Positions 5,574 through 44,445 of a stretch of DNA of 64,000 bases are shown one piece after another. Origin of the DNA: Patescibacteria group bacterium (lineage in GTDB: Bacteria > Patescibacteriota > Minisyncoccia > Phycocordibacterales > Phycocordibacteraceae); NCBI GenBank assembly GCA_040388985.1, contig JAZKAU010000003.1, forward strand, positions 24,557 through 88,556. The letters are read 5' to 3'. The translations under genes and the position numbers were made by a program. The first letter of the stretch is position 1; every line of letters starts with the position of its first letter. The notes beneath the pieces were generated by a model, which ran no database searches, was not told where the DNA came from, and saw nothing but the letters and a program-made list of their open reading frames with translations.

Positions 5574-5672
5574 ACATGGCTTTCCCGGATTATACCAGCA
5601 CGACATCTTGAACCCTCAGATATGTTGGAAGCCGGCGCGGGGGCCGGCTTCTGGGTTGGTGACTGGATGCGG

Positions 5673-5885: not shown

Positions 5886-6048
5886 TTAAGCACCTCTTCT
5901 TATACGATTGCGATTGAGCTTCAGTTCATATTGTAGCAGCTTTTATAGGTTCGGTCAAAATGAGTATATTCGTACGCGAATCTATCCTTCATGAAGCGTT
6001 CATGCATAAACGGTGATACTTTGGACATATTAATAACGCTGATCCTGT

Positions 6049-6726: not shown

Positions 6727-7798
6727 ATACCGGGAGAATCCGTATTGGCGGAGTGCATTCAATATCATCGCCATACAGACTCTGCTCGTGATATTCACGG
6801 TCGTCGTCTTTGCCTTTGCTATCAAATATCAGCAGACGCAGACCGTGCAGGTCCTGCGCGACCATATTACGCAGATAGCGAGCGGTGCGCCGCCTATTAA
6901 CGGCGCGCTCGCGAACGCCTTCCAGAACGTCCGGTATGAGACGCTCGGCGGCGTCCTCTTAGTGCTCATTACTCTCACGGTGCTCTTCGGCTTTCTCGCC
7001 GCGCGCTACGCCCTTTCTCCGACGCGCAATTCTCTCGAATATCAGAAACGCTTTATCGGCAATATCGCGCACGAGTTGCGCACTCCCCTCTCCATTATCC
7101 GCACGAATACGGAAGTAGCGCTGATGGACCCATCGCTGAACGACTACGCCAGGTCCACACTCACGATGACTATAGAAGAACTTGACCGCGTTTCGGAGAC
7201 TATTAATAACCTGCTTACCTTCGATACGTTGCTTCGCCCGGAGCGAATCCGGAAGGGGCCGGTGAATCTCATGTCCGTGATCGAACTGGTCGTAGAGCGC
7301 CACCGCGATTTGGCTACTACGCGCGGCATCATGCTCACTCACAGCGGATCAGACATCGCCTACCTCTTCGGGAACGAAGTCGCGCTCGGACAGGTCTTCA
7401 CGAATCTGGTGAAGAACGCTCTTAACTACACGCCGCAGCATGAAGGCCGCAGCGTTGAAGTGAGAATCGTCGATAACGATGAGACTATCACGGCCAGTGT
7501 CATCGACACGGGCATCGGCATCGCGCAGAAGGACCTCTATCACGTCTTCGAGCCCTTCTACCGCGGCGACACGTCGCGAGCGCGCCGCATCGGCGGCGGA
7601 ACAAGCGGACTCGGTCTTGCTATCGTCAACGATATCGTGCGCGCTCACCAAGGCTCGATCATCGTGCGCAGCGCGCTCAATCGCGGCACCACCATCGAGA
7701 TATCATTCCCTAAAGCTGACACCACCGAATACGTAAAAGAGATCGCAGCCAAAGAAGATGATGCGGAAGAGTATGAAGCTGCGGTCGTGAAGTCCTAA
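6656..7798 (+). CDS. Sensor histidine kinase (HisKA + HATPase_c)
   Basis: Two N-terminal TM helices, an H-box FIGNIAHELRTPLS, an N-box LVKNALNYT and G-boxes DTGIGI and GGTSGLGLAI. The true start is probably a non-ATG codon downstream of 6656, because the ORF-track start overlaps the response regulator by 71 nt. Confidence 0.85.
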   Translation: MMTMPTPTHSSKLSAVSVTALTDKYRENPYWRSAFNIIAIQTLLVIFTVVVFAFAIKYQQTQTVQVLRDHITQIASGAPPINGALANAFQNVRYETLGGVLLVLITLTVLFGFLAARYALSPTRNSLEYQKRFIGNIAHELRTPLSIIRTNTEVALMDPSLNDYARSTLTMTIEELDRVSETINNLLTFDTLLRPERIRKGPVNLMSVIELVVERHRDLATTRGIMLTHSGSDIAYLFGNEVALGQVFTNLVKNALNYTPQHEGRSVEVRIVDNDETITASVIDTGIGIAQKDLYHVFEPFYRGDTSRARRIGGGTSGLGLAIVNDIVRAHQGSIIVRSALNRGTTIEISFPKADTTEYVKEIAAKEDDAEEYEAAVVKS

Positions 7799-7887
7799 TC
7801 GAATCAGATGCTATATTTGACAATGCCTATAAATATTATACACTGCTCAGGTACCCCTTTGACTCGATAACGACGGAGAAGACAGTA

Positions 7888-8313
7888 ATGACTCGTTATA
7901 CCCGATATCAGGGACTGATCCTTGGCTTCATTCTCATCCTGGGCGGATTCACCATCTGCGGGCTCAGTTCGCTCGCGCTAATGATGACGATGCTCGATCG
8001 CGAGACTATGCTGACGTCGAGCGTGATGAGCTTCGCGTTCGCGTTCGTCGTCTTCGGCGCCGGCGTGGTCATCTTCTGCGAGTGCTATCGCGCATGCTCG
8101 CATGAGGAGCGCCGTACGGTGACCGAGGTCGCAGTCTGCGGCGTCATCGGCGCTCTCGGCCTCGTCTTCGTCCTGGCGCTCGTGCTCATTCCGGACATGA
8201 ATTCCGGCGGGCGGTGGCTCTGCATGGCGTGTGCGACGGCGTTCTTCGTGTTCGCCGCCCTTCGCCTGCGCAAGCGCCTGCACAAGCGCGACGAAGAAGA
8301 ATCTGTCGCCTAG
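7888..8313 (+). CDS. Hypothetical integral membrane protein
   Basis: 141 aa with 4 predicted TM helices and a strong terminator downstream. Confidence 0.4.
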   Translation: MTRYTRYQGLILGFILILGGFTICGLSSLALMMTMLDRETMLTSSVMSFAFAFVVFGAGVVIFCECYRACSHEERRTVTEVAVCGVIGALGLVFVLALVLIPDMNSGGRWLCMACATAFFVFAALRLRKRLHKRDEEESVA

Positions 8314-8328
8314 CGCTCCGGCCAAGCG

Positions 8329-8362
8329 CGACAAAGCCCTCCCCGGTGCGATCGGGGAGGGC
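8329..8362 (+). terminator. Rho-independent terminator
   Basis: Hairpin aaagccctccccggtgcgatcggggagggctttt sits just after the stop of the 7888..8313 gene. Confidence 0.6.
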
Positions 8363-8395
8363 TTTTGACATCTCAATGTTTGTCGAATGTGGACG

Positions 8396-9166
8396 TCACT
8401 TCTTGAGACCTGCGCCGTTTCTAAAAAGCAGCAGTACCCACACGAGCATCAGGATCGTGAAGCCGCCGATGACGGCGAAGCAGGTCGTAAGGCGTACATC
8501 AGAGACGCCGAGGAAGCCGTACCGGAAGGCGTTCACCATATAGAGGATAGGGTTAGCGAGCGAGATGTTCCGAAACAGAGGCGGGAGCAGCGATATGGAG
8601 TAGAAGACGCCTCCGAGGTACGTGAGCGGCGTGAGTACGAAGCTCGGCACGATGGTTATGGCGTCGAAGGATTTCGCGTAGATGGCGTTCACGATGCCCG
8701 CAAGCGCGAATAGGAGCGCCGTTAAAAAAGCAGCGACAAAGAGTATTAATATATTGAAGACGGCGAGATGCGTGAACAGGAGCGCGACGATGATGACGAG
8801 CACGCCGGTCAGTGCCGCCCGTATCATGCCGCCGGTCACGAAGCCTGCGACCACCGCCCACGACGGCATCGGCGAGACAAGTATCTCGTCGATGGTATGC
8901 TGCCACTTCGCGAAGTAGAACGTGGAGACCGTATTCATATAGGAACTTGTGATGATGGTCATCATGATGAGGCCTGGCACGATGTACTGCATGTAGCTAT
9001 AGCCGTCTATAGGCGCGACCTGGCTGCCGATGAACCGTCCGAAGACGATGAAGTAGAGGGTGGTCGTTATTACCGGCGGAAGGAGCGTCTGCGACCAGAT
9101 GCGTATGATGCGCGTGAACTCCTTGTGGACGATAGTGCTGTAGCCGATGAGTGTGGGAGATTTCAT
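8396..9166 (-). CDS. ABC-2 type transporter permease
   Basis: 256 aa with 6 TM helices and an ABC-2 family architecture. It is coupled to the upstream ATPase gene. Confidence 0.8.
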   Translation of the reverse strand: MKSPTLIGYSTIVHKEFTRIIRIWSQTLLPPVITTTLYFIVFGRFIGSQVAPIDGYSYMQYIVPGLIMMTIITSSYMNTVSTFYFAKWQHTIDEILVSPMPSWAVVAGFVTGGMIRAALTGVLVIIVALLFTHLAVFNILILFVAAFLTALLFALAGIVNAIYAKSFDAITIVPSFVLTPLTYLGGVFYSISLLPPLFRNISLANPILYMVNAFRYGFLGVSDVRLTTCFAVIGGFTILMLVWVLLLFRNGAGLKK

Positions 9167-9169
9167 ATC

Positions 9170-10123
9170 TTAAGCATTAGCGTCTTTCTTCTCGATGAGC
9201 TGTATGAATACCTCCTCGAGACGGCTGCCCATCGAGCGGACATTGCTCACGTGCACGCCCACCGACGAGAGCTTGCGGAAGGCCTCGTTCATCGTGCCTC
9301 CGGGACCGAGCGTAAGTTTAAGCGTATGGTCATCCTCGCGTTCGAGCGGTTCGCCGCGCAGAAGCTGCATGACGGCCTCTGTGAGCTGCTCGACCGTGTC
9401 GAGCAGCACGGTAGTTATGTGAAGCTTGGTGAGGAGCTCCTTCACGCTTCCCTGCTCGATGATATCGCCATGATTGATTATGGCGACGCGGCGGCAGAGC
9501 TGCTCGGCTTCTTCGAGGTAGTGCGTGGTGAGGAGGATGGTCGTTCCCTTCTCGTTCAAATCCTTCAGGAATTCCCACATGCTGCGCCGCAGCTCGACGT
9601 CGACGCCGGCCGTCGGCTCATCGAGCAGCAGCACTTGCGGCTTATGGATGAGCGCACGAGCGATCATCAACCGGCGCTTCATGCCGCCAGAAAGGTTCTG
9701 CGCCTGATCGTTGCGCTTCTCCCAGAGACCGAGTTCCTTTAATAGCACTTCCGCATACGGCATCGCATCAGCCTTCCGTATGCCGTAGTATCCGGCCTGC
9801 GCGATGACGATATCGAGTACCTTCTCGAAGATGCTGAAGTTGAATTCCTGTGGGACGAGCCCGATGAACGTCTTCGCCTTGTCGGGGTCGACATCGGTGG
9901 ATACGCCGTGGACCGATACGGTGCCCGACGACTTGCGGCCGAGTCCTGCGAGAATTGAAATGAGCGAGGTCTTGCCTGCGCCGTTCGGGCCAAGCAGCGC
10001 GAAGAACTCGCCCTGGTCGATGGTAAGCGACACGCCTTTGAGCGCTTCGGTGGGCAGTTCCTTATTCCCCTTACTCTGGGGATAGACCTTCTTGAGATCC
10101 TGTATCTCTATCGCGGGCGTCAT
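9170..10123 (-). CDS. ABC transporter ATP-binding protein
   Basis: Walker A GPNGAGKTS, signature LSGGMKRRL and Walker B LLLDEPTAGVD. The start is placed at the internal Met MTPAIEIQDL (cat at 10121-10123). Confidence 0.9.
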   Translation of the reverse strand: MTPAIEIQDLKKVYPQSKGNKELPTEALKGVSLTIDQGEFFALLGPNGAGKTSLISILAGLGRKSSGTVSVHGVSTDVDPDKAKTFIGLVPQEFNFSIFEKVLDIVIAQAGYYGIRKADAMPYAEVLLKELGLWEKRNDQAQNLSGGMKRRLMIARALIHKPQVLLLDEPTAGVDVELRRSMWEFLKDLNEKGTTILLTTHYLEEAEQLCRRVAIINHGDIIEQGSVKELLTKLHITTVLLDTVEQLTEAVMQLLRGEPLEREDDHTLKLTLGPGGTMNEAFRKLSSVGVHVSNVRSMGSRLEEVFIQLIEKKDANA

Positions 10124-10284
10124 TTTTCCTAGTATACGACATTTCTTTCTTAGGAGCCAAATTGGCGAGTTAGAAAGAAAGAAGCGCTCTTGTAGCGTCG
10201 AGTCGCGATGCATTTGGGAAATGTGCTCTATATTGGGTATAGCAGACCGGTCTTCGCAAAGATTGCGGTATCTTTAAGTGAGTT

Positions 10285-12132
10285 ATGGTGGGCACACTTA
10301 TCGTACTTCTTGCTACTCTCGTCGCGCTTCTCGTAAGCGGCTTGTTCGTCTATGTAGGCATCAAGATGACGATGGGGGCGAAGGTCACGGTGCGTGTGGA
10401 TGTGAATCTGCCTGAAACAGGAACGCGCTCACAAGCGATGCCTCACGAGACGACTGACCACACACTGCGTGACCGGCTTGCGACAGTCATGCGTGGTGAC
10501 GTTACTGACGCGCAGGACGAGCGCATCCGCTACAGCCGCGACACGAGCATATTCGTAAGGAAACCATCAGTCGTCGTCTACCCCAAAGATGGCGATGATG
10601 TCTCATATCTCGTACGCCAGGTGGCGGCACTGAAGAAAGAAGGACAGAACGTGTCGATCACTGCGCGCTCGGCAGGCACGGATATGTCCGGCGGTCCGCT
10701 CACCGACTCAGTGGTCGCCGTATTCACGAAATACATGAATCATGTGCCGGAAGTAGTGGGAGACGCACACGGCGGATATGCGATCACCGAGCCAGGTGTC
10801 TACTATCGCGACTTCGAGAAAGAGACGCTCGCGCACGGTGGCCTCATGCTTGAGTCATATCCGGCGTCGCGCGAGCTCGCCGCCATGGGCGGCTTGTTTA
10901 ACAACAACTCGGGAGGCGAACGTACGCTCGAATACGGCAAGACGGAAAAGTACGTCGAAACAGTCGACGTCGTGCTCTCCGATGGCACCATGACGACATT
11001 TAAGGAACTCTCGCAGATGGAACTCGCGCAGAAGAAGAAGTTGGATATGCTCGAAGGCTCGATATATCGCGAGATGGATGAGCTGCTCACCAAGCACCGC
11101 AAAGAGATAGCGCTCGCCAAACCCAGGGTCTCGAAGAACTCGGCTGGTTACGCGCTCTGGAACGTGAAGGACGAGCGCGCGAAGACCTTCAATCTCGCGA
11201 AGCTCATATGCGGCGCTCAGGGTACGCTCGCGCTCACCACGTCTATGAGGCTGCGTCTCGTAAAGGATCAGGGCGCGCGCAGCATGCTCGTCGCCTTTCT
11301 CTCGGAGAACGACATGCGGCATCTCCCCGGTATCGTGCGCGCCGTGCTTCCGCATAATCCCGAATCGTTCGAATCGTTCGACAAGCACACGCTTTCGCTA
11401 GCCATCAAGTTCCTTCCGGGTCTGCTCTCGCAGATGGGAATCTTCCGCGCCGCGCGGCTCGGCCTTTCCTTCCTTCCGGAACTCTGGACATCGATCACCG
11501 GCGGGCTTCCCTTCTTCATCCTCATGGCAGAGTTCTCTCGCGGCTCGCATGAAGAATCACTCGCAGCTGCTCGCGCGGCCGAGGCATCGCTGCGTCCATT
11601 CACACTTCGCACCCGCATCCTCAAGAACGAGCATGCGAGCGAGAAATATTGGATAGTGCGGCGCGAGAGCTTTGCGCTCCTGCGTAAGCATTCGAAGGGT
11701 CTCTACGCTGCACCCTTCATCGACGACATCATCGTCCCGCCGGACTCATATCCAGAATTCCTGCCACGCCTAAACGCGCTGCTCGACGAATATAAGGATT
11801 ACTTCGTCTATACTATCGCCGGACACATCGGCAACGGCAATTTCCATATCATTCCTCTCATGGATCTGAGTCGGCCTGAAGTCCGGGATGTCATAACCGA
11901 GCTTGCGCCGAGAGTCTATAGCCTTGTCATCCGGTACGGAGGCTCGACCACCGGCGAGCATAATGACGGCATCATCCGTACGCCGTATCTTCCCCAGCTC
12001 TTCGGTCCCGAGATCTATGGCCTTTTCAAGCAGACGAAGAATATCTTTGATCCTGAGAATATCTTTAACCCGGGCAAGAAAGTCGGAGGAACCTTCGAGG
12101 ACATTAAGAAGGACATGATAACCAGCGCGTAG
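10285..12132 (+). CDS. Membrane-anchored FAD-linked oxidoreductase (GlcD/D-lactate dehydrogenase-like)
   Basis: N-terminal TM helix, then an FAD_binding_4 (PCMH) region with VVYPKDGDDVSYLVRQ..ARSAGTDMSGGPL, and a large C-terminal oxidase domain. Confidence 0.7.
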   Translation: MVGTLIVLLATLVALLVSGLFVYVGIKMTMGAKVTVRVDVNLPETGTRSQAMPHETTDHTLRDRLATVMRGDVTDAQDERIRYSRDTSIFVRKPSVVVYPKDGDDVSYLVRQVAALKKEGQNVSITARSAGTDMSGGPLTDSVVAVFTKYMNHVPEVVGDAHGGYAITEPGVYYRDFEKETLAHGGLMLESYPASRELAAMGGLFNNNSGGERTLEYGKTEKYVETVDVVLSDGTMTTFKELSQMELAQKKKLDMLEGSIYREMDELLTKHRKEIALAKPRVSKNSAGYALWNVKDERAKTFNLAKLICGAQGTLALTTSMRLRLVKDQGARSMLVAFLSENDMRHLPGIVRAVLPHNPESFESFDKHTLSLAIKFLPGLLSQMGIFRAARLGLSFLPELWTSITGGLPFFILMAEFSRGSHEESLAAARAAEASLRPFTLRTRILKNEHASEKYWIVRRESFALLRKHSKGLYAAPFIDDIIVPPDSYPEFLPRLNALLDEYKDYFVYTIAGHIGNGNFHIIPLMDLSRPEVRDVITELAPRVYSLVIRYGGSTTGEHNDGIIRTPYLPQLFGPEIYGLFKQTKNIFDPENIFNPGKKVGGTFEDIKKDMITSA

Positions 12133-12507
12133 AGCTTCCTAAAATTCCCCAATCTGCTTTGTTGTCGCTATCACTCGAATCCTCACGTACGCCCCTGGTT
12201 ACTTACGACGGGCTGGAGTTAGTAACCAGGAAGTGCCCTTGGGGTGCATCTGAGTACGACTCGGATTCTCGCTCTGCTCCGCCTCGCATCTCGGGTTTTT
12301 TAGAAACCTCTATTTGCGAGTTTGGGGGCGAAGGACTCAAGTTTCGGTATATAAAGTAATCCACACCCACCCCGTAATTCCTTGTGTTTTCATGAAGGAT
12401 ATAGCATAATAGCTACAACTCGCCGGTCTACCCTAGCTTCGTGCGGCCGCAAGGCTTTTCAAGGTTCGGCATCAGCGAGACGTTATTTACCCTAGTCACC
12501 AGCCCAC

Positions 12508-12873
12508 ATGGCAACAAGCAAGCTCTACGTCGGCGGTATTCCGTATCGCACGACTGAGGATGAGATGCGCGCAGCTTTCGAGGAAGCAGGCGCAGTCGTA
12601 TCCACCAGCATTATCAGCGATCGTATGACCGGCCGCTCGCGCGGATTCGGTTTCGTCGAGATGGAAGATGAAGCAGGCGCACAGGCTGCTATCGACCGTT
12701 GGGACGGCAAGGAGTTCGACGGGCGTATGCTCTCGGTCTCACTCGCACGTCCTCAAGGCGACCGCCCTCCCCGCGACAACAACGCTCCTCGGAGCGGCGG
12801 ATACGGAGGCGGTGATCGCGGTGGTTACAGCGGCGGAAGCCGCGGTGGCTACGGAGGTGGTAACAGCTACTAA
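12508..12873 (+). CDS. RRM-type RNA-binding protein with a Gly/Arg-rich (RGG) tail
   Basis: RNP2 KLYVGGI and RNP1 RGFGFVEM, followed by SGGYGGGDRGGYSGGSRGGYGGG. Confidence 0.8.
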   Translation: MATSKLYVGGIPYRTTEDEMRAAFEEAGAVVSTSIISDRMTGRSRGFGFVEMEDEAGAQAAIDRWDGKEFDGRMLSVSLARPQGDRPPRDNNAPRSGGYGGGDRGGYSGGSRGGYGGGNSY

Positions 12874-12919
12874 TACTCTTCAGTATTAGTGAGCATTTCT
12901 CACTGATCGTCTCACAATG

Positions 12920-24807: not shown

Positions 24808-25362
24808 TCATCTATCACCACGAGAAGCGCCCTGCGAGGTTCCGTCCTCTCGGGGTTCTTTTCTTTTATAGGCAAGCTTTGGGTGTAGATCATTCATAAA
24901 GGCAAGGTAGCCTGATTCAAGACGCTTAAGCAATACAGAATATTTATATTGATTAGGAATCAATAATTTCCTGAGCTTCTTCTGTTCGACCAGGTATTTT
25001 ACTAAGCAGTGAAAATCACCATCGCCGGTTACTAGTACCGCCTGCCCGTAGTTAGGATATTCAATCATGGCATTAAGGACTAGCTCGGCATCTACGTTAC
25101 CCTTGGTGCTACCGTCCCGGTATCTGAGCGTCGGTTTAAATATACAGATAAACCCTGATTCTTGGAGCCTCGTATACAGATCAGCATTACCTTCTACGTA
25201 TCCTATAAACAAATAAGCCTTCTCAACGCCATATTTCTCAGTCAGATATATGCGAAAGCGACGCATATCCAGTTTCCAACCAAGAGCGCGAATGCTCAAA
25301 TATAGATTCTGACTATCGATAAATGCATAATTCTCCTTCTTCCTCGACATACGGTAAAGCAT
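24808..25362 (-). CDS. NYN-domain (LabA-like, PIN-fold) predicted RNase
   Basis: AFIDSQNLY ... NVDAELVLNAM ... VLVTGDGDF matches the NYN/COG1432 pattern. The local sequence is AT-rich. Confidence 0.65.
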   Translation of the reverse strand: MLYRMSRKKENYAFIDSQNLYLSIRALGWKLDMRRFRIYLTEKYGVEKAYLFIGYVEGNADLYTRLQESGFICIFKPTLRYRDGSTKGNVDAELVLNAMIEYPNYGQAVLVTGDGDFHCLVKYLVEQKKLRKLLIPNQYKYSVLLKRLESGYLAFMNDLHPKLAYKRKEPREDGTSQGASRGDR

Positions 25363-25493
25363 ATCGAGATATAGGTAACCAATATCTCAAGAAAATATGG
25401 GCCAAAGATGAGCGCCGGTGGTATCTGCACACTTATCCTGTGAATAAAGGGTTGAGGCATTCCGAGCTTACTCCAGCATGCTACTCTTTTGAC

Positions 25494-25949
25494 ATGGATA
25501 TCGCCTTCGACTCAAAAGCTATAAAAGACCGGACCTTCGTCCTGGCCTTCTTTACCCTCTTCTTCCTCATCGCGCCGGGCATCGCCGGCATCTATCTCTA
25601 TTTCCCTGCGTATATAGTCGAACTCGACTCGATAAAGCTCATCCTCCTCTCAGTGACCTGCACCATGCCTATAGCGGTACTTAACGCCATAACCATAGGC
25701 ATGTGCGAACGCCGGCAGAAGGAACGGCGGGATGACCTGTTCCATGATTTCGTCTTCGGGACCATCGTGAGCGGCACGCTCATATATTTCGTTGTGATCC
25801 TCTCGCACCTCATGCACTGGTCAGTACCCCGGCTCGGCGCTCTCCTCCTCGTCGTCGAGATCCTGACCATCCTGGGCATCTGGCTGAACGGCAAGCGTGC
25901 CCACAAGCTCCTCCTGCGCCGCACCACCGAGGACGAAGAAGCTATCTAA
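25494..25949 (+). CDS. Hypothetical membrane protein
   Basis: 4 TM helices. The start is placed at an internal ATG to avoid overlapping the NYN gene. The longer ORF from 25323 remains possible. Confidence 0.35.
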   Translation: MDIAFDSKAIKDRTFVLAFFTLFFLIAPGIAGIYLYFPAYIVELDSIKLILLSVTCTMPIAVLNAITIGMCERRQKERRDDLFHDFVFGTIVSGTLIYFVVILSHLMHWSVPRLGALLLVVEILTILGIWLNGKRAHKLLLRRTTEDEEAI

Positions 25950-26296
25950 GTATCAAAGCTGCCTCAAGGCAGCACGTAACCCAGGCCTATAAATAAGAAG
26001 AGTCCGTATCGCCGCCGGCGACACGAACCCCTTTCTACAAGCACTGCGACTGCGACTACTCGCCGTCGCTCGAGCCGCGCTCGGCGGAATAATGCGGATG
26101 GCGCCTGTGCCCAGGCCGATAGCTCGCGCCCATATGCGCCGGCCTCGGATCGGGCCGACGGTTACCGCGGTTATTCCCCTTGCTCCAGCTGCTATTGCTC
26201 ATTGCAATCCTCTCCCCTATTACAGGACTTCACAAAACACCGGCCCTTCTGGACCGGATTTCCCCATACTAAACCACACTTCCCCCCGTGTCAAAG

Positions 26297-26716
26297 TCAA
26301 TCTTCTATTTCCAATAAGAAATTCTTTATCTTCTCGAAAGCCGCGAGCTTCTTCTTTTCAGTCAGCTCGTGCTCCCATACGCGCATGACTCGCCACCCGT
26401 TCCTTCTGAGACGTGCGAGTGTCCTTCGGTCACGCTTGATATTCGCCTCGATCTTGTCCTGCCAATAGACCTTGGGGAGCTTGTGCTTCCAATCCGGAAA
26501 ACGATATCCGTGCCAGAAATCTCCGTCTATGAAGATGGCGAGCTTCTTGCTCGGTACTGCTACGTCCGGACTTCCTGATACCCGCTTATAATGCCGTTGG
26601 AAATGTATCCTCTCCTTCCGCAGGTATCGGAACACCTTCATCTCCGGCTTCGTTCCTTTGGGCCGGATGCGAGACATTACTTCGCTCCTCTTCTCTTTCG
26701 TGAAGATATCAGCCAT
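26297..26716 (-). CDS. vsr: Very-short-patch repair endonuclease Vsr
   Basis: Vsr motifs MADIFTKEKRSEVMSRI and FIDGDFWHG, with a size near 139 aa. It overlaps the upstream C5-MTase gene by 8 nt, the classic dcm-vsr arrangement. Confidence 0.75.
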   Translation of the reverse strand: MADIFTKEKRSEVMSRIRPKGTKPEMKVFRYLRKERIHFQRHYKRVSGSPDVAVPSKKLAIFIDGDFWHGYRFPDWKHKLPKVYWQDKIEANIKRDRRTLARLRRNGWRVMRVWEHELTEKKKLAAFEKIKNFLLEIED

Positions 26717-27959
26717 CCGCTCTCTTGATGAGTTCCCTGCCAAGACGTTCGACTATGCCGACCACGAGCGCATTGCCCATGAAGAATGCACGCTGGTTAT
26801 CTGATGCTCCAGCGGTGTGGTTCTCGGGAAACATATTCAGCTTCTCGAGCTCGAGAGGGATGAGCCGGCGATAACGTCCTGAGCTAGTACGTATGACATG
26901 TTTGAAGCGTGACGCGCCGGATCCTCCCTCACCGGTAACGATGGTGCGCGACGGCTTATCGAGCGGATCGGGGAACGCCATCGATCCTTCCGAATAGTTA
27001 TATTTGAATCCATCCTTGCTCCTACGTTCTTCCGTCTTACCGCTTTTATGCCTTCTCCATTCCTCGAGCCTATCCTTAGGTATGAAATACTCTTCAGGGA
27101 TCTTGCTTTCAGGGACTACTATATGCTTCAGGAAGGTGCTTTCCCCTTCATAATTGGGCATGATCTTTACGGTCAAGACGTTTCCGTCTATCATGACCCC
27201 GGCATTGTGGAATATGCTGGCTTTGCTGTTCAGATTCAGCTTGGATTCGACTTCATTCGCGACAGGCAGCTGAATCGTATCTATGGAGCCGCCCAGAGGA
27301 TGAATCGGGAAGGCCTTCGGCATCACGCCTGCTTTCATTAGCCAGCCGAGAGCATCCTTCTTGATGGCTTGATACTGAGTGGTTCCTTTCTTATAGCCAA
27401 GGATATACACTCTGCGTCTGCGCTGCGGCATCCCGTAATCCGCAGCGTTTATCACTCTCCACTCGATCGCATAGCCGAGCTCGGCGAGCGAGGCGAGCAT
27501 GATGGCGAAGTCCCTTCCCCTCTTGGACACGGGAGATTTCAATAACCGGTCGACGTTCTCTAGCATAAGATATCTCGGCGCTTTCTTTCCTTTCTCTCGC
27601 AGGATCCGATATATCTCCCACCAGAGAACGCCTTTCTTGCCGACGAGTCCGGCCGCCTGACTCAAGGTCCGCGCTACGGAGTAATCCTGGCATGGGAAAC
27701 CTCCGACCAGGAGATCGTGATCAGGAATCTCATCGACAGGCACATCGGAGATATCAGTATTCGTGAATCTGCGCCTGGAGGACTGAGGTTCATGACCGAA
27801 TACGCGGCAATATGTCGTCCAGGCATGCTGGGAAGAATCCGGCTTACCCGGCTCCCATTGGTTGAACCAGACGGTATCGAAATCCTTCGAGGCTCGTTCG
27901 AAACCGACTCTGAAACCTCCGACTCCTGCGAACAGCTCAGCGACGCGCAATCTTTTCAT
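26709..27959 (-). CDS. dcm: DNA (cytosine-5)-methyltransferase
   Basis: Motif I ELFAGVGG, motif IV GGFPCQDYS and motif VI ENV. At 416 aa its size matches M.Sau3AI-type enzymes. Confidence 0.9.
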   Translation of the reverse strand: MKRLRVAELFAGVGGFRVGFERASKDFDTVWFNQWEPGKPDSSQHAWTTYCRVFGHEPQSSRRRFTNTDISDVPVDEIPDHDLLVGGFPCQDYSVARTLSQAAGLVGKKGVLWWEIYRILREKGKKAPRYLMLENVDRLLKSPVSKRGRDFAIMLASLAELGYAIEWRVINAADYGMPQRRRRVYILGYKKGTTQYQAIKKDALGWLMKAGVMPKAFPIHPLGGSIDTIQLPVANEVESKLNLNSKASIFHNAGVMIDGNVLTVKIMPNYEGESTFLKHIVVPESKIPEEYFIPKDRLEEWRRHKSGKTEERRSKDGFKYNYSEGSMAFPDPLDKPSRTIVTGEGGSGASRFKHVIRTSSGRYRRLIPLELEKLNMFPENHTAGASDNQRAFFMGNALVVGIVERLGRELIKRADG

Positions 27960-28004
27960 AACCCTATTCTATACAAGTATCCGGAATCGATCAAGCCCTT
28001 GCTG

Positions 28005-29423
28005 TCAGGCCTTCAGTACGGATTCTATATACTTCGCATTCAGCCAGAATGAACGCTTGATTTCCTGTGTCCCTTGCGGGGTCTCCTGCGTATCGCTGCT
28101 ATCTTTGGCATGAGGCCTGACATGAGCTACGGGACTGCCTGTAATCTTGGGCAGATCTCGATATCTTCCTTCCTCTATGCACCTGAGAGCAAGGTCGAAG
28201 ACACGTTCTGCTTCCGGAAAGTCTTCCGCCGGAAAGTTCCAGAACTTCACCTTTGACAGCCTTACCGCGCCCTCCGCTGTCTTCTGGAAAACGACGAACA
28301 GGAAGCGGCTCATTTCTAGTTCTGCATGGAAATCCGACATGATCTCTTCCTTCTGGTCATACCAGAGCTGAGTAATCAGATTCTTATAATCGAAAGCCGG
28401 GAATGATATTGATTCTCTCAGCGACCCGTCCGTCTCGAGCGTGACTACTCTCAGGGTCACATCGGCTTTCTCGAATTCCTCTATCTTATTCGACCCGGTG
28501 CCGGTAAGTATCCGGTTCGCCAGGAGTCGCTTGAAATTCTTAGGCCGGCTATCTGTCCTCCACCCCAGGATCTGCATGATTTCCGTATCGGACTTTCCTA
28601 TATACGGACCGAACTTATCCTCTACGACCTCATCGATGGTCATGTCATGCTTCTCTCCTCTATATATGGATTCCGCATCAGGTCTTGCGCCGAGCAGATT
28701 CCGCTGGATCAGATGATTCAGATAAGCCTGTTTCAAGGAGAATGCCCGAGGCTTCGCTGGAGTACGCGACATGGGCTGGTCGCGGACCACCCTGCTATTC
28801 CGAGCCTTCGTACAGGCGCCCAGGTAGAACGTATCCCCTTCAGAGAGCAGGTGCGCGTCGCCGCGGCGTATCTTATCGATGATGAATTGCCAATCCTTGC
28901 GAATCTGCTCGGCGTCCTGCTCTGATATATCTTCGAGGAGATCAAGGAGATGCACGAACTCGAATTCATAGTCGAGCACGCTCTGTCCCTTGTCCAGGTA
29001 CAGGTAGAACATGATCAGCAGGAGCCTGTTCTTCTCGAGGAACGAACTGGTCTCCCAGCGTTCGCTGATGACCTTGTCGTAGTCGATCATCGAGAACACG
29101 AGCCGTTCCTTGGCCACGTATCGCTTTGTCTTATGCCGCCTGAGCGGAGTCGACTTCAGCTCGATGCCGGCTAGCTTGAAATCGGCTTCTGCACGGCCAT
29201 TGTTAGCGATTCCGAATACATAGCGCTCTATGAGGTCCCCTAAGTAGCCTTTCCGGTTGGTGCCGTATCCGGCCAGCTTATCCTCTATCTCATCGAGCTC
29301 TTCTCGAGGAATGAACTCTTTCAGGGTCTTGTGCAAGGCACGGTTCGCGGCGGTGACGACTTCTTCCTCGGTTCTGTAGATAGTTTCAGGCATGGTATCT
29401 GATGCGGAATCAGTCATTTCCAA
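28005..29423 (-). CDS. Sau3AI/MutH-family type II restriction endonuclease (predicted GATC-specific)
   Basis: The N-terminal domain contains EADFKLAGIELKSTP, matching the MutH catalytic D..E.K block DFAALGVELKTIP. A second, degenerate MutH-like half resembles two-domain Sau3AI, and the 472 aa length is close to Sau3AI's 489. Confidence 0.7.
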   Translation of the reverse strand: MEMTDSASDTMPETIYRTEEEVVTAANRALHKTLKEFIPREELDEIEDKLAGYGTNRKGYLGDLIERYVFGIANNGRAEADFKLAGIELKSTPLRRHKTKRYVAKERLVFSMIDYDKVISERWETSSFLEKNRLLLIMFYLYLDKGQSVLDYEFEFVHLLDLLEDISEQDAEQIRKDWQFIIDKIRRGDAHLLSEGDTFYLGACTKARNSRVVRDQPMSRTPAKPRAFSLKQAYLNHLIQRNLLGARPDAESIYRGEKHDMTIDEVVEDKFGPYIGKSDTEIMQILGWRTDSRPKNFKRLLANRILTGTGSNKIEEFEKADVTLRVVTLETDGSLRESISFPAFDYKNLITQLWYDQKEEIMSDFHAELEMSRFLFVVFQKTAEGAVRLSKVKFWNFPAEDFPEAERVFDLALRCIEEGRYRDLPKITGSPVAHVRPHAKDSSDTQETPQGTQEIKRSFWLNAKYIESVLKA

Positions 29424-30066
29424 GGATACTCTTCCAGGAGCCTTTCGTCACTATCACATGGTCGATAACGGCTATATCGAGGATCCGTCCCGCTTGCACG
29501 AGTCTCTTGGTGACTTCCAGATCCGCAGCTGACGGCTCAGTATCTCCTGACGGATGATTGTGAGCGAATATGACTGACGAAGCGTGGCTGACTATGGATT
29601 GCTCGAATACCTCGCGCGGATGGACCAGGCTCTCGTTCAAGGTCCCTATCGACACCACGTCCCTACGTATCTCTTGCTCCCTGCTGTCCAGGTAGAAAAC
29701 CACGAAATGCTCCCTCTTGCTCTCGCGTATGTCCGACATCCTTTCCCAGACATCCTTCGCGGAGAGTAACACTGACGTCTTCTTATCCTTAAGTAATCTC
29801 CTTCCGAGCTCGAAACAAGCGACGATTCCGCTGGCTTTAGCTTTTCCTAGTCCGGGTATCTCACAGAGCTCAAGGAGGGTAGCTGTTCCAAGACCGATAT
29901 CCTTCCATCGCGCGAGCACTCTGCTTGATAGTTCGATTGCATTCGTGCCTTTCATGCCCGTACCGAGGAGGATCGCGAGCAACTCAGCATCCTTGAGCCT
30001 TTCCGGGCCATATCTCTCAAGCTTCTCGCGCGGTCGGTCCTTGCTATGAAACTCCTTTATCTTCAT
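29410..30066 (-). CDS. radC: RadC-like JAB/MPN-domain protein
   Basis: HhH region LLAILLGTG and JAMM motif HNHPSGDTEPSAAD. Confidence 0.8.
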   Translation of the reverse strand: MKIKEFHSKDRPREKLERYGPERLKDAELLAILLGTGMKGTNAIELSSRVLARWKDIGLGTATLLELCEIPGLGKAKASGIVACFELGRRLLKDKKTSVLLSAKDVWERMSDIRESKREHFVVFYLDSREQEIRRDVVSIGTLNESLVHPREVFEQSIVSHASSVIFAHNHPSGDTEPSAADLEVTKRLVQAGRILDIAVIDHVIVTKGSWKSILGND

Positions 30067-30075
30067 TGCTCAGGA

Positions 30076-30918
30076 TTAGACCGAGGATGCGTAATTCCGT
30101 ATGGCCAATTCGATGATGCTAGCGTCAGCTCCTACGCTTGCACCGAGGCTGCGCGGAGCGAGTATCCTGTGATACTCGAATCCAGGATATAAGTTCCTCA
30201 CCTTCTTTATGTCGTTATTACTCAAGAGCACCTTTCCGCCTCTTGCCTGCAGAGATCTCACGAAATCCGCGAGGTTGATCCTGTCCATTTCTGAGAATGT
30301 CTCAGGAGTATATTGAACGAAGCTTGTCCTTTTTATCGGATCGTAGCAAGGATCAAGATAGATAAAATCTCCTGACGATATATGAGGTACGATCTCCCTA
30401 TAATCTTGATGCACTATATCTACTCCCTGCAAGAGCCTGCTGGCTTCCAATATGACCTCTCTTGAGAAGACTTCCGCTTTCTTATATCGTCCATAAGGGA
30501 CATTGAATTCATTCTTAGAGTTCACTCTGAATAGACCGCTGTAGCAAGTCTTGTTCATATATATGAAGGCTGCGGCTCGCTCGACTCCTTTAAGGGCTTT
30601 CAGGTTGAATTCCTCCCTCGTCTGATAATAAAATTCTTCCGAATCTCTCTTCTTGAACCTTGACAGAGCGGTTAGCAATCCCTTCGGATTATCTCGTACG
30701 GCTTGATAAGTGAGCACGAGATCAGCATTAGCATCCGATATCAGGGAGAAATCCGGATTGTATTTCTGCTTTACGTAGAAGAAGACAGATCCGCCTCCGA
30801 GAAAAGGCTCGAAGTATCTTTCTATGGTCTCCGGAAAGAGAGTGTCAAGCGTATCGAGAATCCTGCGTTTTCCGCCTGCCCACTTCAGGAATGTCGGTAT
30901 GTTTAAGGTGTTCTTCAT
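30076..30918 (-). CDS. dam: Dam-family N6-adenine DNA methyltransferase
   Basis: The protein is collinear with E. coli Dam, matching FLKWAGGK, EPFLGGGSVF, YYQTREEFN, MNKTCYSGLFRVNSKNEFNVPYGRYKK and a DPCY variant of DPPY. Confidence 0.85.
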   Translation of the reverse strand: MKNTLNIPTFLKWAGGKRRILDTLDTLFPETIERYFEPFLGGGSVFFYVKQKYNPDFSLISDANADLVLTYQAVRDNPKGLLTALSRFKKRDSEEFYYQTREEFNLKALKGVERAAAFIYMNKTCYSGLFRVNSKNEFNVPYGRYKKAEVFSREVILEASRLLQGVDIVHQDYREIVPHISSGDFIYLDPCYDPIKRTSFVQYTPETFSEMDRINLADFVRSLQARGGKVLLSNNDIKKVRNLYPGFEYHRILAPRSLGASVGADASIIELAIRNYASSV

Positions 30919-32045
30919 CTTGTGCTTAATCCGGATTTCTCCATCAGATCTTTATACAGATCTGATTGGCCCTGTCCTCCCGGTATATATCTGCTCTTCG
31001 TAAAGTCATCCTGCTTCAAGTCTATCCTAGCGAAGACCTGTTGAAAATCCTCTTTGCTTGCAACCTTGCCAGGAGTATCGAATGAAAGATAGACGTCTCT
31101 CATGAATCTCATGAGAGCCACGAAACCTGTAGATTTATTCAATATCATCTGTACTCTCACCTCATTCCAAGCATCGGGCCACTTCAGCGACACCGCAGAG
31201 AAATAATTCCATACAATCTGAGCTATCTCCGCATCCTTTTCCTCGAGGAAGAGGTTCCTGAAAATCAGCTTGCTCGCCGAATCCCCTTCCGCTCTCTTCG
31301 GTACTCCTCCTCTCTTGTATATATCCCTATCAGTCATCGGATTCAGAGACAGGTACTTTAATAAGTATTCGACAAAAGTCGCTTGAGTTATCGTCTCTCT
31401 CTCTCCATCCTCTGCCACCCCCAGAATCTTGACTTTTCCTTCAAAAGGGCTCCCTTCTTTCTCGTTCAGGGCGCGTACGATCTGATGTGCGGTCTTCTGC
31501 GGACTTCTTGAAGTCGCGAAGGCGAATAAGTCCGCCACCAGCGACTTATTCACCTTCGTCTGAGATTTGTTTATCGTTGCAAACAATATCGCCTGGTCTT
31601 CAAGATCAATGTCGACGAAAATAGCGACGTTTGTCTCAAAACTAGAGGGTCGAGGACTGGCTTTTTCGAATCCAGCGGCTCGATGTTGTCCGTCGAGTAT
31701 CTTCGCAATCTCTCCATCCCTTCTAATCCGCATCCTCGAGCTCTTCTCGTCGTATTGAACGTTCGTGGAAGAGACAGAGAGTATTATCGCAGTCGGGAAA
31801 GCCGCGTCGACCAGATTCACGTATCTTGCAATCTCCTTGACCCTGGAGGCTGAGAGAGGTCTCTGTATACCGATGTATTTCTCAATCTCAGTCTCATTCC
31901 TCTCTCTATGACGGATGTCGCTATAGGAAATATCTACCAGATCTTGCATCTGCATTACGCCCATGTAAAAATCGCCTATAGGCTGCCTTACCTTGATAGA
32001 CTGGAATTCCACCCACTCATCCTTTAATGAAATTTTCATAGGCAT
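30915..32045 (-). CDS. DGQHR-domain protein (DndB-like, ParB/Srx fold)
   Basis: An exact ILDGQHRAAG motif together with an upstream IGIQRPLSASRVKEIARYV block. Its ATGA start overlaps the Dam gene, and its stop overlaps the downstream membrane gene. Confidence 0.75.
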   Translation of the reverse strand: MPMKISLKDEWVEFQSIKVRQPIGDFYMGVMQMQDLVDISYSDIRHRERNETEIEKYIGIQRPLSASRVKEIARYVNLVDAAFPTAIILSVSSTNVQYDEKSSRMRIRRDGEIAKILDGQHRAAGFEKASPRPSSFETNVAIFVDIDLEDQAILFATINKSQTKVNKSLVADLFAFATSRSPQKTAHQIVRALNEKEGSPFEGKVKILGVAEDGERETITQATFVEYLLKYLSLNPMTDRDIYKRGGVPKRAEGDSASKLIFRNLFLEEKDAEIAQIVWNYFSAVSLKWPDAWNEVRVQMILNKSTGFVALMRFMRDVYLSFDTPGKVASKEDFQQVFARIDLKQDDFTKSRYIPGGQGQSDLYKDLMEKSGLSTR

Positions 32046-32551
32046 TATCTTAGACTTTTCTTAATACCGTCGATGCTGCGCCTTTCTTCTTCCGCTACAT
32101 CGATTCCCTTGCTTAGCCTATCTATATAGTTAGAGAAATAATGTGCAAAAAGAGCGATTAACAGGAAGACGAGTGACGAATAGAATATGACAGCCTTATC
32201 CGGATTAATAAGCCCATCTATCGGAATCGAAAGCGTAGTGGCTAATATGGCATATAGGACCGAGGAGAGTATCAGGAAGCATATGCAAAGCCAGAACAGG
32301 ACCGAGGAGAAATCAAAATTCTTTTTCTTTGTAGCGTAAAGCAGATATGCTGAATTTATGTAGAAAGCTGCAGCATAAAGATAAAACTCTCCATGTGACC
32401 AGAATACGGTCCAGCCATGCCATTGAGACAAGATTAAGGAGATAGCTAATCCTATAATAAGTGGCAATAATCCGCCTATCACCGTCACGCTAAAGAGCAT
32501 GCTGGTTTCTTTGAAAATATTTGATCTGAATGTCAATGCCGAAAGAAACAT
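32045..32551 (-). CDS. Small 4-TM membrane protein, first gene of the DGQHR-Dam module
   Basis: 168 aa with 4 hydrophobic helices and a charged C-terminal tail, DVAEEERRSIDGIKKSLR. Its TAATG stop overlaps the start of the DGQHR gene. Confidence 0.45.
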   Translation of the reverse strand: MFLSALTFRSNIFKETSMLFSVTVIGGLLPLIIGLAISLILSQWHGWTVFWSHGEFYLYAAAFYINSAYLLYATKKKNFDFSSVLFWLCICFLILSSVLYAILATTLSIPIDGLINPDKAVIFYSSLVFLLIALFAHYFSNYIDRLSKGIDVAEEERRSIDGIKKSLR

Positions 32552-32771
32552 GTCGATTCGTTAAAATCTAAGACGACTAAACCTCATGAGGTGATTTTAC
32601 AACGAATGTCGGTATAACCTAGAGATATCAGGAGTATTGATATCTAGAAACTTCATAAAGATCTTATGTGCTCGAGGAAGCCATATCCTAAGGGCTATTA
32701 GCCGTCGCAATCTTGATATGAGGTTATCAATAATTACTCGTGGATTCCTAGAGAATCACGACTAGGCTGAC

Positions 32772-32806
32772 AAGCAAAGAGGCGCCCGGGTCTGGGACGC
32801 CTCTTT
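32772..32806 (-). terminator. rpoD terminator hairpin
   Basis: gcaaagaggcgcccgggtctgggacgcctctttgc abuts the rpoD stop. Confidence 0.6.
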
Positions 32807-32808
32807 GC

Positions 32809-34095
32809 TTAGTATGATTTCAGTCTTCGGGATTTTTCATGGGTCCGGATCTTTTCAAGAGCCTTCGCCTCGATCTGGCGGATGCGCTCGCGGGTGACGC
32901 CGAACTCCTTCCCTACTTCCTCGAGCGTGTGGTACACGCCGTCAAGGAGACCGTGGCGCATCTCAAGGATCTTGCGCTCCTTAGGGGAAAGATCATCGAG
33001 AATGTCGCGGACCTGTTCGGTGAGGATGCGTTCGGATGATTCCTGGACCGGGGACGGAATCTTATCGTCTGCGATGAAGTCGCCAAGCGTCGAATTCTGG
33101 TCGTCGTCAGAGCCTACGGGATTCTCGAGCGAGAGGGTGTCCTGATTAATCTTCTCGATCTGGTAGATCTTATCTACTTCGACACCCATCTCGACTGCCA
33201 CTTCTTCCGGTTGCGGATCGCGGCCGAGCGTCTGCGCGAGGCGGCGGGATACCTGCTTGTACTTGGCGATGGTCTCGACCATGTGCACCGGGATACGGAT
33301 GGTACGGGACTGATCGGCAAGCGCGCGAGTGATGGCCTGGCGAATCCACCAGGTAGCGTAGGTCGAGAACTTATAGCCCTTCTTCCAGTCGAACTTGTCG
33401 ACGGCCTTGAAAAGGCCGATATTACCTTCCTGGATAAGGTCGAGGAGGGTGAGGTCGGGTGAGCGTCCGACGTATTTCTTGGCGATAGACACGACGAGGC
33501 GGAGGTTGGAACGGGCGAGGATGTTGCGCGCCTCGTCGTCGCCGCTCTCAATGCGCTTGGCGAGCTCCTTCTCCTCGTTCCCGGTCAGAAGCGGGTACTG
33601 ACCGATCTCACGCAGGTATATCTGGATGGAGTCGTAGCTTCCGCTATCGCGGCTCTTGATGTTGCGTCCGGCGAGGTACTCGTCAGCCTGATCCTCGAGC
33701 ATGCCGCCTTCGAGGATGTCGATGCCGGAGATGGTGAAGCGCTCATAGAGCTCATCGAGGAAGGTGACGTCGTCCTCGATGTGCGGGAATTCGCGGAGGA
33801 TCTCGCTGTACGTAATATAGCCGCGCTCCTTTCCTTTCTGGATGAGGCGTTCGGCCTTGTCGGTGCGGTCGCTTGCGGCCTTCGCCTTCACGCCGGTTAC
33901 GGCCTTACGTACGACATTCATCGCGCGGGCGTTCTTAGCTACCTTCTTGGGTGCAGTCTTCTTAACCGCCTTCTTTACGGCTTTCTTGACTGCCTTCTTT
34001 ACTACTTTTTTGGTAGTCTTCTTAACAACTTTCTTCGGAGCTGCCTTCTTTGGTGCAGACTTTTTCTTCGGAGCTGCCTTCTTCTTTATAGCCAT
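32809..34095 (-). CDS. rpoD: RNA polymerase sigma-70 factor RpoD with a Lys/Ala-rich histone H1-like N-terminal tail
   Basis: Regions 1.2-4 are present ([46 protein letters not shown]). The N-terminal 50 aa consist of [11 protein letters not shown] repeats. Confidence 0.9.
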
Positions 34096-43644: not shown

Positions 43645-44445
43645 CTATAAAAGCGCCTTTATCTCTCTAAGATCAGGATGGCAGGGAGAAAGGTAGATTA
43701 CAAAAGTATCATCAAGTATTTTTAGTTCACGGAGATAATCTGCATAACTATCTCGCAGATTATAGGCTTTGAAGTTAGCGTGGAGTATCTTTTGCCCGGA
43801 TGGTTTAGCTCGTGACATGGCGCTTGCGATCTCCATCGTTTTTACCACTGAGTTGCAGGCAGAGCCTAATATTAAACCTGATATGTTCTCATCTGTGAGA
43901 ATTTGTTCCGTGCGCTCTGGAGTAGACCGACCGCCGTAAATAAGTGGGATGCGATCTCCCGCTTCTCGACCGAATCTATCGATAAGCCAATCATGCAGTG
44001 ACCTACACACTCCCGAAATAACTTCCGGAGCAGGAGGCGGCATGTCGTCACGTCCGCTTCCCCGAGATCCCCATTTCGGTTCATATCCAACAACTAAGTT
44101 CGTAAGGTAATTCGCAGGTATGTCATGAAGAATCGAGGCCAGGTGTACACGGACACGCTCCTCGATCTCTTGCGGCAAGGCCGATTCAAATTCTTCCCAT
44201 GTTTCGCCAACGAGTATCGTCAATCTATCGAGAAGTGCTACTTCACCCCCTCTTGCGATAATAGTCTGTAACTTCTTAGCTACCACCTCTAGAGTGTCAC
44301 CGACTTCTGAATGGCCGAGAATGACACCCTCCGCGCCCGCCTTGCAAACCTGCTCCGCGCTAACCGCCCCTGTTCGTGCAAAAAGATCGTCGCCATCGCC
44401 ATCGTATATATCTATATTCTGTGCCGAGAGAATGATTCGAGCCAT
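43645..44445 (-). CDS. tpiA: Divergent triosephosphate isomerase-like (TIM) protein
   Basis: VILGHSEV matches the GHSERR region, VGYEPKWGSRGSG matches AYEPVWAIGTG, and IYGGRSTP matches YGGS. The overall sequence is divergent. Confidence 0.55.
   Translation of the reverse strand: MARIILSAQNIDIYDGDGDDLFARTGAVSAEQVCKAGAEGVILGHSEVGDTLEVVAKKLQTIIARGGEVALLDRLTILVGETWEEFESALPQEIEERVRVHLASILHDIPANYLTNLVVGYEPKWGSRGSGRDDMPPPAPEVISGVCRSLHDWLIDRFGREAGDRIPLIYGGRSTPERTEQILTDENISGLILGSACNSVVKTMEIASAMSRAKPSGQKILHANFKAYNLRDSYADYLRELKILDDTFVIYLSPCHPDLREIKALL

Follow-up and report, generated by a model that had tools for sequence, protein, structure and literature searches.

A Sau3AI-type restriction-modification operon and a mobile three-gene methyltransferase cassette lie head to tail in a Patescibacteria genome

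Background

Restriction-modification (R-M) systems of the Sau3AI type act on the tetranucleotide GATC. Sau3AI and LlaKR2I cleave this site, and for DpnIII, which is accompanied by a 5-methylcytosine (m5C) methyltransferase (MTase), cleavage of GATC has been shown directly (PMC4471560). GAT(m5C) blocks Sau3AI, and N6-methyladenine (m6A) in G(m6A)TC leaves the enzyme unaffected (PMC5608340). Among adenine MTases, Escherichia coli Dam (EcoDam) contacts GATC through residues K9, Y119, N120, L122, R124, P134 and Y138 (PMC4417163). The present study deals with an array in which relatives of both kinds of enzyme stand together, at positions 26297-32551 (minus strand) of a stretch of 64,000 nucleotides (nt) from a Patescibacteria group bacterium (GenBank assembly GCA_040388985.1, contig JAZKAU010000003.1, positions 24,557 to 88,556), referred to below as the window. 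An earlier note, made from the letters of the window, had described the array as one AT-rich defence island of eight genes centred on GATC.

The array also encodes a DGQHR-domain protein, and the relatives of this protein are known from modification systems. The ParB-like proteins DndB, DpdB and SspE serve modification machinery as NTPases, regulators or effectors (PMC4507180, PMC10853773, PMC4619093). DndB has been described as a ParB domain combined with HEPN (PMC3632139), and in Ssp systems the counterpart of DndB is considered to be SspE (PMC10853773). The family TIGR04172, "DNA phosphorothioation-associated DGQHR protein 1", is defined as strictly dependent on phosphorothioate (PT) modification (PMC3226654). 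RadC, a further member of the array, is a protein with HhH and JAB domains that is thought to act on DNA and whose function is debated (PMC3239186).

Modular structure of the array

Seven co-directional open reading frames (ORFs) occupy 26297-32551, all on the minus strand. Ten proteins encoded between 24176 and 32551 were scanned with Pfam, NCBIfam and PADLOC hidden Markov models (HMMs). Read in the direction of the genes, the array encodes a transmembrane (TM) protein of 168 amino acids (aa) at 32045-32551, a DGQHR-domain protein of 376 aa (30915-32045), a Dam-family D12 MTase of 280 aa (30076-30918), a full-length RadC of 218 aa (29410-30066), a Sau3AI-family restriction endonuclease (REase) of 470-472 aa (28005-29423), a C5-MTase of 416 aa (26709-27959) and a Vsr protein of 148 aa (26297-26743). 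The gene order and domain calls of the earlier note were upheld by HMM matches; its total of eight was a miscount, as the note itself names seven.

The two ends of the array differ in composition. The background was formed by the 43 other ORFs of the window, with a mean GC content of 0.561 and a standard deviation of 0.044. RadC, REase, C5-MTase and Vsr genes have a GC content of 0.51-0.53 (z -0.7 to -1.3), a third-position GC content (GC3) with z about 0 and codon-usage z of -0.5 to +0.2, and are compositionally native, the same as other window genes. The Dam, DGQHR and TM genes have a GC content of 0.40-0.46 (z -2.2 to -3.6), with z of -0.9 to -1.7 for GC3 and of -0.6 to -1.4 for codon usage. 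Deviant composition, one criterion for a genomic island, is limited to 30076-32551, while 26297-30066 is ordinary for the window. By the refuting condition that the earlier note had set on GC and codon usage, its island claim fails for four of the seven genes, which are indistinguishable from other window genes; the other three deviate in GC. The AT-rich island stands for Dam, DGQHR, TM and the spacer separating them from rpoD (32552..32808, minus strand, 257 bp, GC 0.43) but not for RadC, REase, C5-MTase and Vsr.

Synteny divides the array at the same place. In locus L085, whose RpoD is 94% identical to that of the window, rpoD is followed by an unrelated S-adenosylmethionine-dependent MTase gene on the other strand, the RadC-Sau3AI-MTase-Vsr block, variable genes, YgjP and a UvrD-like helicase. 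The block is 71.6% identical in nucleotides to that of the window over 3.7 kb, and YgjP and UvrD-like genes border the array in both, but TM-DGQHR-Dam is absent from L085. The R-M block is therefore resident in the lineage rather than a recent arrival, and the three-gene cassette, which fills the gap between rpoD and radC, looks to have been inserted there. The R-M block is likewise found without the cassette, with RadC abutting the REase and with differing flanks, in three long Patescibacteria contigs (L107, L108 and L109). One locus, L082, has the same seven-gene order, with 61-68% aa identity; the junction of the two blocks must therefore be old or have been transferred as a block.

A single island is rejected on composition and on the synteny with L085. 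It is likely that the locus consists of two DNA-modification modules, independent of each other, layered and arranged head to tail, rather than of one island. The earlier note had left open whether two systems are layered or one is used to counter the other; as the comparative data show separable modules, the former is the better of the two readings.

The Sau3AI-type operon

The REase passes the Sau3AI equivalog NF040973 with 420.3 bits (cutoff 300) over residues 16-470 of 472, and carries PF02976. It fails both MutH equivalogs (55 against a cutoff of 243 bits, and 43 against 230). Residues 28-420 match the structure of Sau3AI (PDB 4pxg, 2.3e-52). The protein is built of two MutH-like halves, of which residues 259-420 match structures of the C-terminal domain (2reu, 7xm0). 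The catalytic block D81-x6-E88-x-K90 is intact, and 24 homologues all keep D81, E88 and K90. By its membership in the Sau3AI family, the enzyme is predicted to cut unmodified GATC.

The C5-MTase, identified by PF00145 (201 bits), TIGR00675 (225 bits) and PADLOC MTase_II PDLC03329 (491 bits), has all canonical motifs, namely FAGVGG (motif I), GFPCQ (IV), ENV (VI), QRRRR (VIII) and GNALV (X). It adjoins the REase in every homologous locus and is presumed to be its cognate, making GAT(m5C); this specificity is assigned because of the pairing. Vsr passes TIGR00632 (112.4 bits, cutoff 97.85) and carries PF03852, and its gene is kept after that of the C5-MTase in L082, L083, L085 and L108. A Sau3AI-family R-M system with Vsr, as suggested by the earlier note, is thus genuine. 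In itself it is routine, a further member of a known R-M type.

RadC passes NF000642 (218 bits, cutoff 180) and has HhH and JAB domains (PF20582 and PF04002) with an intact HNHPSG...D metal site. Although placed in the middle of the array, it belongs to the Sau3AI block and not between two systems. Directly upstream of the Sau3AI homologue, and abutting or overlapping it, a radC gene occurs in L082 (2576-3238), L085 (1434-2081), L107 (7313-7999), L108 (7337-8011) and L109 (7337-7981), which have unrelated flanks. In Patescibacteria contigs, RadC is followed by the Sau3AI homologue, the C5-MTase and usually Vsr. RadC and Vsr are both absent from the two Sau3AI-dcm pairs examined on Firmicutes plasmids, and relatives matching the Sau3AI profile were not found in IMG/VR. 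The RadC-R-M(-Vsr) operon is lineage-specific in Patescibacteria; no description of an operonic link of RadC to R-M was found in the literature searched. The role of RadC in this operon is probably in DNA processing or repair, and its linkage to Sau3AI across the lineage provides a clue to the long-unclear role of this protein.

The TM-DGQHR-methyltransferase cassette

The DGQHR protein is assigned to TIGR03187 (217 bits, cutoff 58.85) and matches PF14072 (65.6 bits). It lies below the cutoffs of TIGR04172 (207.5 vs 450 bits), DpdB (NF041060, 70.1 vs 300) and DndB (TIGR03233, 23.5 vs 328). Its N-terminal domain is a DndB-like ParB/Srx domain with the invariant pentapeptide D118-G-Q-H-R122, and its C-terminal half, which is all-alpha, contains an invariant R180-x6-H187. 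Fold searches with an AlphaFold2 model (pLDDT 77) returned weak ParB-N matches only. HEPN domains have an R-x4-6-H motif in a four-helix fold; alongside the invariant R180-x6-H187, neither an HMM match nor a fold match to HEPN was obtained for this protein. Its family profile gave no match among PDB sequences. No dnd or dpd genes were identified among the ten proteins scanned; the partner here is a D12 MTase.

The TM protein matches no Pfam, NCBIfam or PADLOC family. It has 3-4 TM helices and a charged C-terminal helix, and matches, at E=1.5e-45, an HMM built from the small proteins encoded ahead of DGQHR genes in other genomes. These small upstream proteins form two sequence clusters that are mutually homologous (hhalign 99%).

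Homologues of the DGQHR protein were detected in a number of 2305, and the cassette was surveyed in 80 genome loci from Bacteroidota, Pseudomonadota, Acidobacteriota, Chloroflexota and other phyla. A TM homologue lies directly upstream of the DGQHR gene in 74 of the 80 loci, at a distance of -29 to +17 nt in 73, and in 72 a D12 or N6_N4 MTase is encoded no more than three genes away. Most often the order is MTase-TM-DGQHR, while the clade closest to the window has TM-DGQHR-MTase. The flanks vary, with 91 Pfam families matched among 89 flanking proteins, and none of the 80 loci has Sau3AI, C5-MTase or Vsr near the cassette. It is also carried by 50 plasmid records, 19 of them conjugative, and by 5 IMG/VR contigs; a scan of single metagenome proteins with narrow patterns returned 4 loci. 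In one locus (L098) the cassette stands alone amid housekeeping genes. TM-DGQHR-MTase is thus a self-contained mobile cassette of three genes, in which the DGQHR and TM proteins are conserved partners of the Dam-type MTase and not loose defence genes. No description of this cassette was found in the literature searched.

In two Bacteroidota loci (L049, 7661-12256; L060, about 7739-12900) the TM-DGQHR pair lies inside a complete DpnII-type system, in the order D12 MTase, DpnII REase (319 bits), TM, DGQHR and N6_N4 MTase. In Acinetobacter plasmid pTR3_1 (L086, 1084-5051) and in pRiA4 (L087, 1279-6158) it stands beside REases of the BglII/BstYI family and adenine MTases. The cassette further adjoins Sau3AI-type R-M with Vsr in three gene orders, namely those of the window and L082, of L083/84, and of L092. 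DpnII and Sau3AI recognise GATC, and the sites of BglII/BstYI-type enzymes contain it as their core, which ties each of the three REase families to GATC. The association of the cassette with GATC-methylation systems is striking.

The possibility that the cassette has a conserved REase partner was considered and rejected: the flanks are diverse and hold only 2 DpnII REases among the 89 flanking proteins. In L092, a 255-aa ORF without Pfam or PADLOC family (5574-6341) lies between an M.Sau3AI-like C5-MTase gene (PDLC03329, 529 bits) and the Vsr gene, and may represent an unrecognised REase family. In three other loci an additional DGQHR paralogue of 760-778 aa is encoded between the MTase and TM-DGQHR (L005, 6965-9265; L024, 7118-9400; L071, 7040-9376). 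At the C-terminus, the copies of L005 and L024 weakly match a Swt1-like HEPN domain (E 1.4e-4, below cutoff), and that of L071 has no Pfam match.

Specificity of the cassette methyltransferase

The cassette MTase passes TIGR00571 (258 bits, cutoff 114.85) and stays below the cutoff of the Dam equivalog NF008152 (152.6 vs 441). Its best solved relative is M.DpnIIA (2dpm, 6.5e-58), followed by EcoDam (6e-36). Six of the seven GATC-contact residues of EcoDam are identical (K9, Y119, L122, R124, P134 and Y138), and N120 is replaced by serine. Without exception, the 64 DGQHR-linked D12 MTases keep the equivalents of R124 and P134. With M.DpnIIA as closest solved relative and the EcoDam contacts kept, the proposal of the earlier note that this second MTase also acts on GATC most likely holds, the predicted product being G(m6A)TC. 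Motif IV (30346-30357) reads DPCY, as it does in L082, L083, L092, L098, L099, P0241 and P0289. P0241 is the closest MTase representative, and the contigs carrying it are too short for a neighbourhood. DPPY is found in 147 of the 150 nearest representatives and in 61 of 64 other DGQHR-linked MTases, and DPCY in 2 of these 150, being rare outside the clade.

On these predicted specificities, double methylation of GATC as G(m6A)T(m5C) is rather more probable than not. GATC itself is mildly depleted, as counted in the window, where 271 occurrences stand against 373 expected under a Markov model (observed/expected ratio 0.73); it is the second lowest of the 4-bp palindromes, CTAG being the lowest.

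Proposed model and alternative explanations

In the proposed model, the RadC-Sau3AI-MTase-Vsr block is a long-resident type II R-M operon of a Patescibacteria lineage, whose REase would cut unmodified GATC while the C5-MTase would shield the host as GAT(m5C); Vsr would nick the T:G mismatches arising from m5C deamination, and RadC would be co-transcribed with R-M. The cassette MTase would add G(m6A)TC. The TM-DGQHR pair, whose genes are translationally coupled, would form a membrane-associated, NTP-dependent switch of the ParB/Srx type that reads or depends on the m6A mark and that would either attack DNA lacking the mark or set off abortive infection, by analogy with the ParB-like SspE. As Sau3AI-type enzymes ignore m6A, the two modules would not substitute for each other. 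Both marks would be present on GATC in the host, and incoming DNA would escape only if it had the two of them. A modification-coupled, membrane-associated NTPase switch, probably acting as an effector in defence, is the most economical reading of TM-DGQHR; its main rival is a role in regulation alone.

Several observations weigh against this model, and other explanations were considered. The seven-gene order shared with L082 weakens the view that the insertion is recent, and it may be taken to mean that all seven genes form one integrated, interdependent system, for example with m6A tuning the REase or the MTase, or with TM-DGQHR as a back-up effector of R-M. The genes are moreover co-directional and tightly packed, the cassette adjoins R-M and Vsr in two further orders (L083/84 and L092), of the five DPCY-clade cassettes whose flanks can be seen, four adjoin an M.Sau3AI-like MTase and Vsr, and TM-DGQHR pairs stand beside other complete R-M systems too. 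Against one system are the many occurrences of each module alone, including the 80 cassette loci free of Sau3AI, C5-MTase and Vsr, the four loci with the R-M block and no cassette (L085, L107-L109), the DPCY cassette amid housekeeping genes in L098, and the different compositions of the two blocks; this explanation is unlikely. A second difficulty is that DPCY departs from the consensus (D/N/S)PP(Y/F/W), owing to which activity of the cassette MTase is not assured. If catalysis were impaired, the protein might be a GATC-binding or sensor subunit and GATC would bear m5C only. That cysteine replaces the second proline throughout the clade, that DPPY is so widely kept elsewhere, and that the DAM domain of DndH, which is inactive, has been suggested to work through binding alone (PMC10853773) would agree with such a role. 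The aspartate and tyrosine of motif IV, the AdoMet loop (FLGGGS) and the GATC-contact residues are nevertheless intact, and conservation of DPCY across 50-69% identity, in hosts of 30-56% GC, indicates that the motif is selected and suggests a working protein; loss of catalysis is accordingly judged improbable.

The defence role of TM-DGQHR meets further objections. The pair shows no recognisable nuclease or other effector domain, and PADLOC has no model for the cassette, giving weak DpdB and DndB matches only. Between 6 and 8 of the 80 loci, two of them at truncated contigs, have TM-DGQHR without a nearby MTase, which would be unexpected for a toxic restriction partner. DndB is documented as a negative transcriptional regulator of its own modification operon (PMC4507180; discussed in PMC10853773). 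The cassette may accordingly not be defensive at all, its MTase being an orphan Dam that serves epigenetic control or replication, with DGQHR as a DndB-like ATP-dependent repressor or a limiter of methylation. Most cassettes are indeed without a recognisable REase, and some lie amid housekeeping genes. A regulator, however, would leave the coupled 4-TM partner, present in 74 of the 80 loci, unexplained, and such a role fits poorly with the patchy spread over phyla at 41-69% identity, the occurrence on plasmids and viral contigs, the low GC relative to hosts, and the repeated embedding in or adjacency to R-M and other defence genes. It is held to be somewhat unlikely, though the most serious of the competing explanations. 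A methyl-directed mismatch-repair pair, finally, could be read from a REase with a MutH Pfam domain and a Dam-type MTase two genes away. The REase, however, is a protein of 470 aa with two MutH-like halves that passes the Sau3AI equivalog and fails those of MutH, a C5-MTase invariably comes after it, and relatives carry it with no Dam at all. On the failed MutH cutoffs and the Sau3AI architecture, mismatch repair was rejected as very improbable.

Taking the layered, defensive reading further, it is tentatively proposed that the 4-TM protein and DGQHR may represent a new and widespread class of modification-coupled effectors. Such an effector would be a membrane-tethered ParB/Srx NTPase reading m6A-GATC here and phosphorothioate in TIGR04172 relatives; with the MTase it would make up a minimal three-gene system for telling self from non-self, and it would serve as a second line in DpnII, BglII/BstYI, Sau3AI, type I and Dnd/Dpt systems. 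Doubly marked G(m6A)T(m5C) would then be guarded by two unrelated effectors, and the DPCY form of the MTase, specific to its clade, may be adapted to GATC that contains m5C.

The cassette, an undescribed variant of modification-based systems with thousands of homologues across phyla and on plasmids, is the part of the locus worth following. Should it prove to act in defence or epigenetic control, it would add a new effector type to the ParB/Srx readers of modification, it would explain many "orphan" Dam genes in Bacteroidota and other phyla, and it would provide a natural case of two systems marking one 4-bp site on different bases. Double marking also bears on the countering of phages that have their own Dam, and on DpnI-type enzymes, which require m6A and are blocked by m5C.

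Gene junctions, transcription signals and surroundings

The junctions within the array are close. The TM stop and the DGQHR start overlap by 1 nt, and the DGQHR stop and the Dam start by 4 nt; Dam and RadC are separated by 9 nt; RadC and REase overlap by 14 nt, or by 8 nt with ATG 29417 as the REase start, the one used in the NCBI protein of 470 aa (P0121); REase and C5-MTase are 45 nt apart; and C5-MTase and Vsr overlap by 8 nt with the Vsr start at ATG 26716, or by 35 nt with an upstream TTG. The first of these Vsr starts is the probable one and is required by the earlier junction lengths, which are otherwise as given.

Beyond the TM gene lie rpoD and then dnaG. Transcription of the array is presumed to start inside the spacer between rpoD and the TM gene; a promoter there is inferred only, because promoter-like matches, like terminator-like ones, were no more frequent than in shuffles. 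At the other end, a GC-rich hairpin with a T-rich tail (26240..26257, minus strand), 40 nt past the Vsr stop and matching the terminator consensus, is likely to end the transcription unit. A second terminator-like hairpin follows the rpoD stop (32772-32810; arms of 16 nt, 94% complementary, loop of 7 nt). RpoD itself (32809-34095) has a repetitive N-terminus rich in lysine and alanine (KKAAPKK...).

The tRNA remnants and flanking direct repeats that had been suggested as marks of island ends were not convincingly present: no tRNA was found in the whole window, and the repeats around the array were short and at chance level. No integrase occurs among the ten proteins scanned. Between Vsr and YgjP, a stretch that is variable and unlike L085 holds a pair of ORFs (24808-25362 and 25323-25949). 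One is an NYN-domain gene of very low GC content (0.427, z -3.0), overlapping by 40 nt a divergent 208-aa ORF that has no family match and whose translation contains hydrophobic stretches; the pair may be another acquired element. Other ORFs of low GC content in the window are located at 4473-4976, 43645-44445 and 53805-54323 (GC 0.42-0.48, z -1.8 to -3.1).

Comparison with known systems

The R-M block resembles the type II systems of Sau3AI, LlaKR2I and DpnIII in its full-length family REase, its D-x6-E-x-K site and its adjacent C5-MTase. It differs from them in that here, and in related Patescibacteria, a full-length RadC opens the operon and Vsr usually closes it. The overlap of an m5C MTase gene with a Vsr gene recalls Dcm-Vsr of E. 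coli, although the site is presumably GATC here and is CCWGG there.

The cassette is linked to the DpnII system and to E. coli Dam by M.DpnIIA as the closest solved relative of its MTase, by the EcoDam contact residues, and by the presence of TM-DGQHR inside DpnII systems (L049 and L060). Unlike these systems, the locus has no REase of the DpnII/MboI type, and its MTase has DPCY in motif IV, scores below the Dam cutoff and is accompanied by TM and DGQHR partners.

With DndB and TIGR04172 the DGQHR protein shares the DGQHR or ParB/Srx domain, and it aligns over its full length to TIGR04172 (3e-61). Members of TIGR04172 likewise have a small upstream partner and a modification operon alongside, and sit beside dndBCDE or dptFGH. 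The TIGR04172 pair is found beside or between dndBCDE and PT-dependent restriction genes in L110 (8457-10230), L114 (6465-8260) and L115 (5378-7281, with dptGH), a parallel unit of two genes joined to another kind of DNA modification. The small partners of dnd-linked DGQHR proteins have no detectable homology to the 168-aa TM protein, but that of L110, from Rhizobium, has 4 predicted TM segments. The cassette differs from DndB and TIGR04172 in having an adenine MTase as partner rather than dndBCDE, and in scoring below the cutoff of each of these families. SspE, GmrSD and BrxU are modification-sensing effectors, ParB-like proteins of the DUF262 type with the motif DGQQR. Their ParB/Srx NTPase module is related, the shared motif being DGQ(Q/H)R (PMC4619093), and as NTPases reading a mark on DNA they provide the mechanistic analogy for the switch proposed here.

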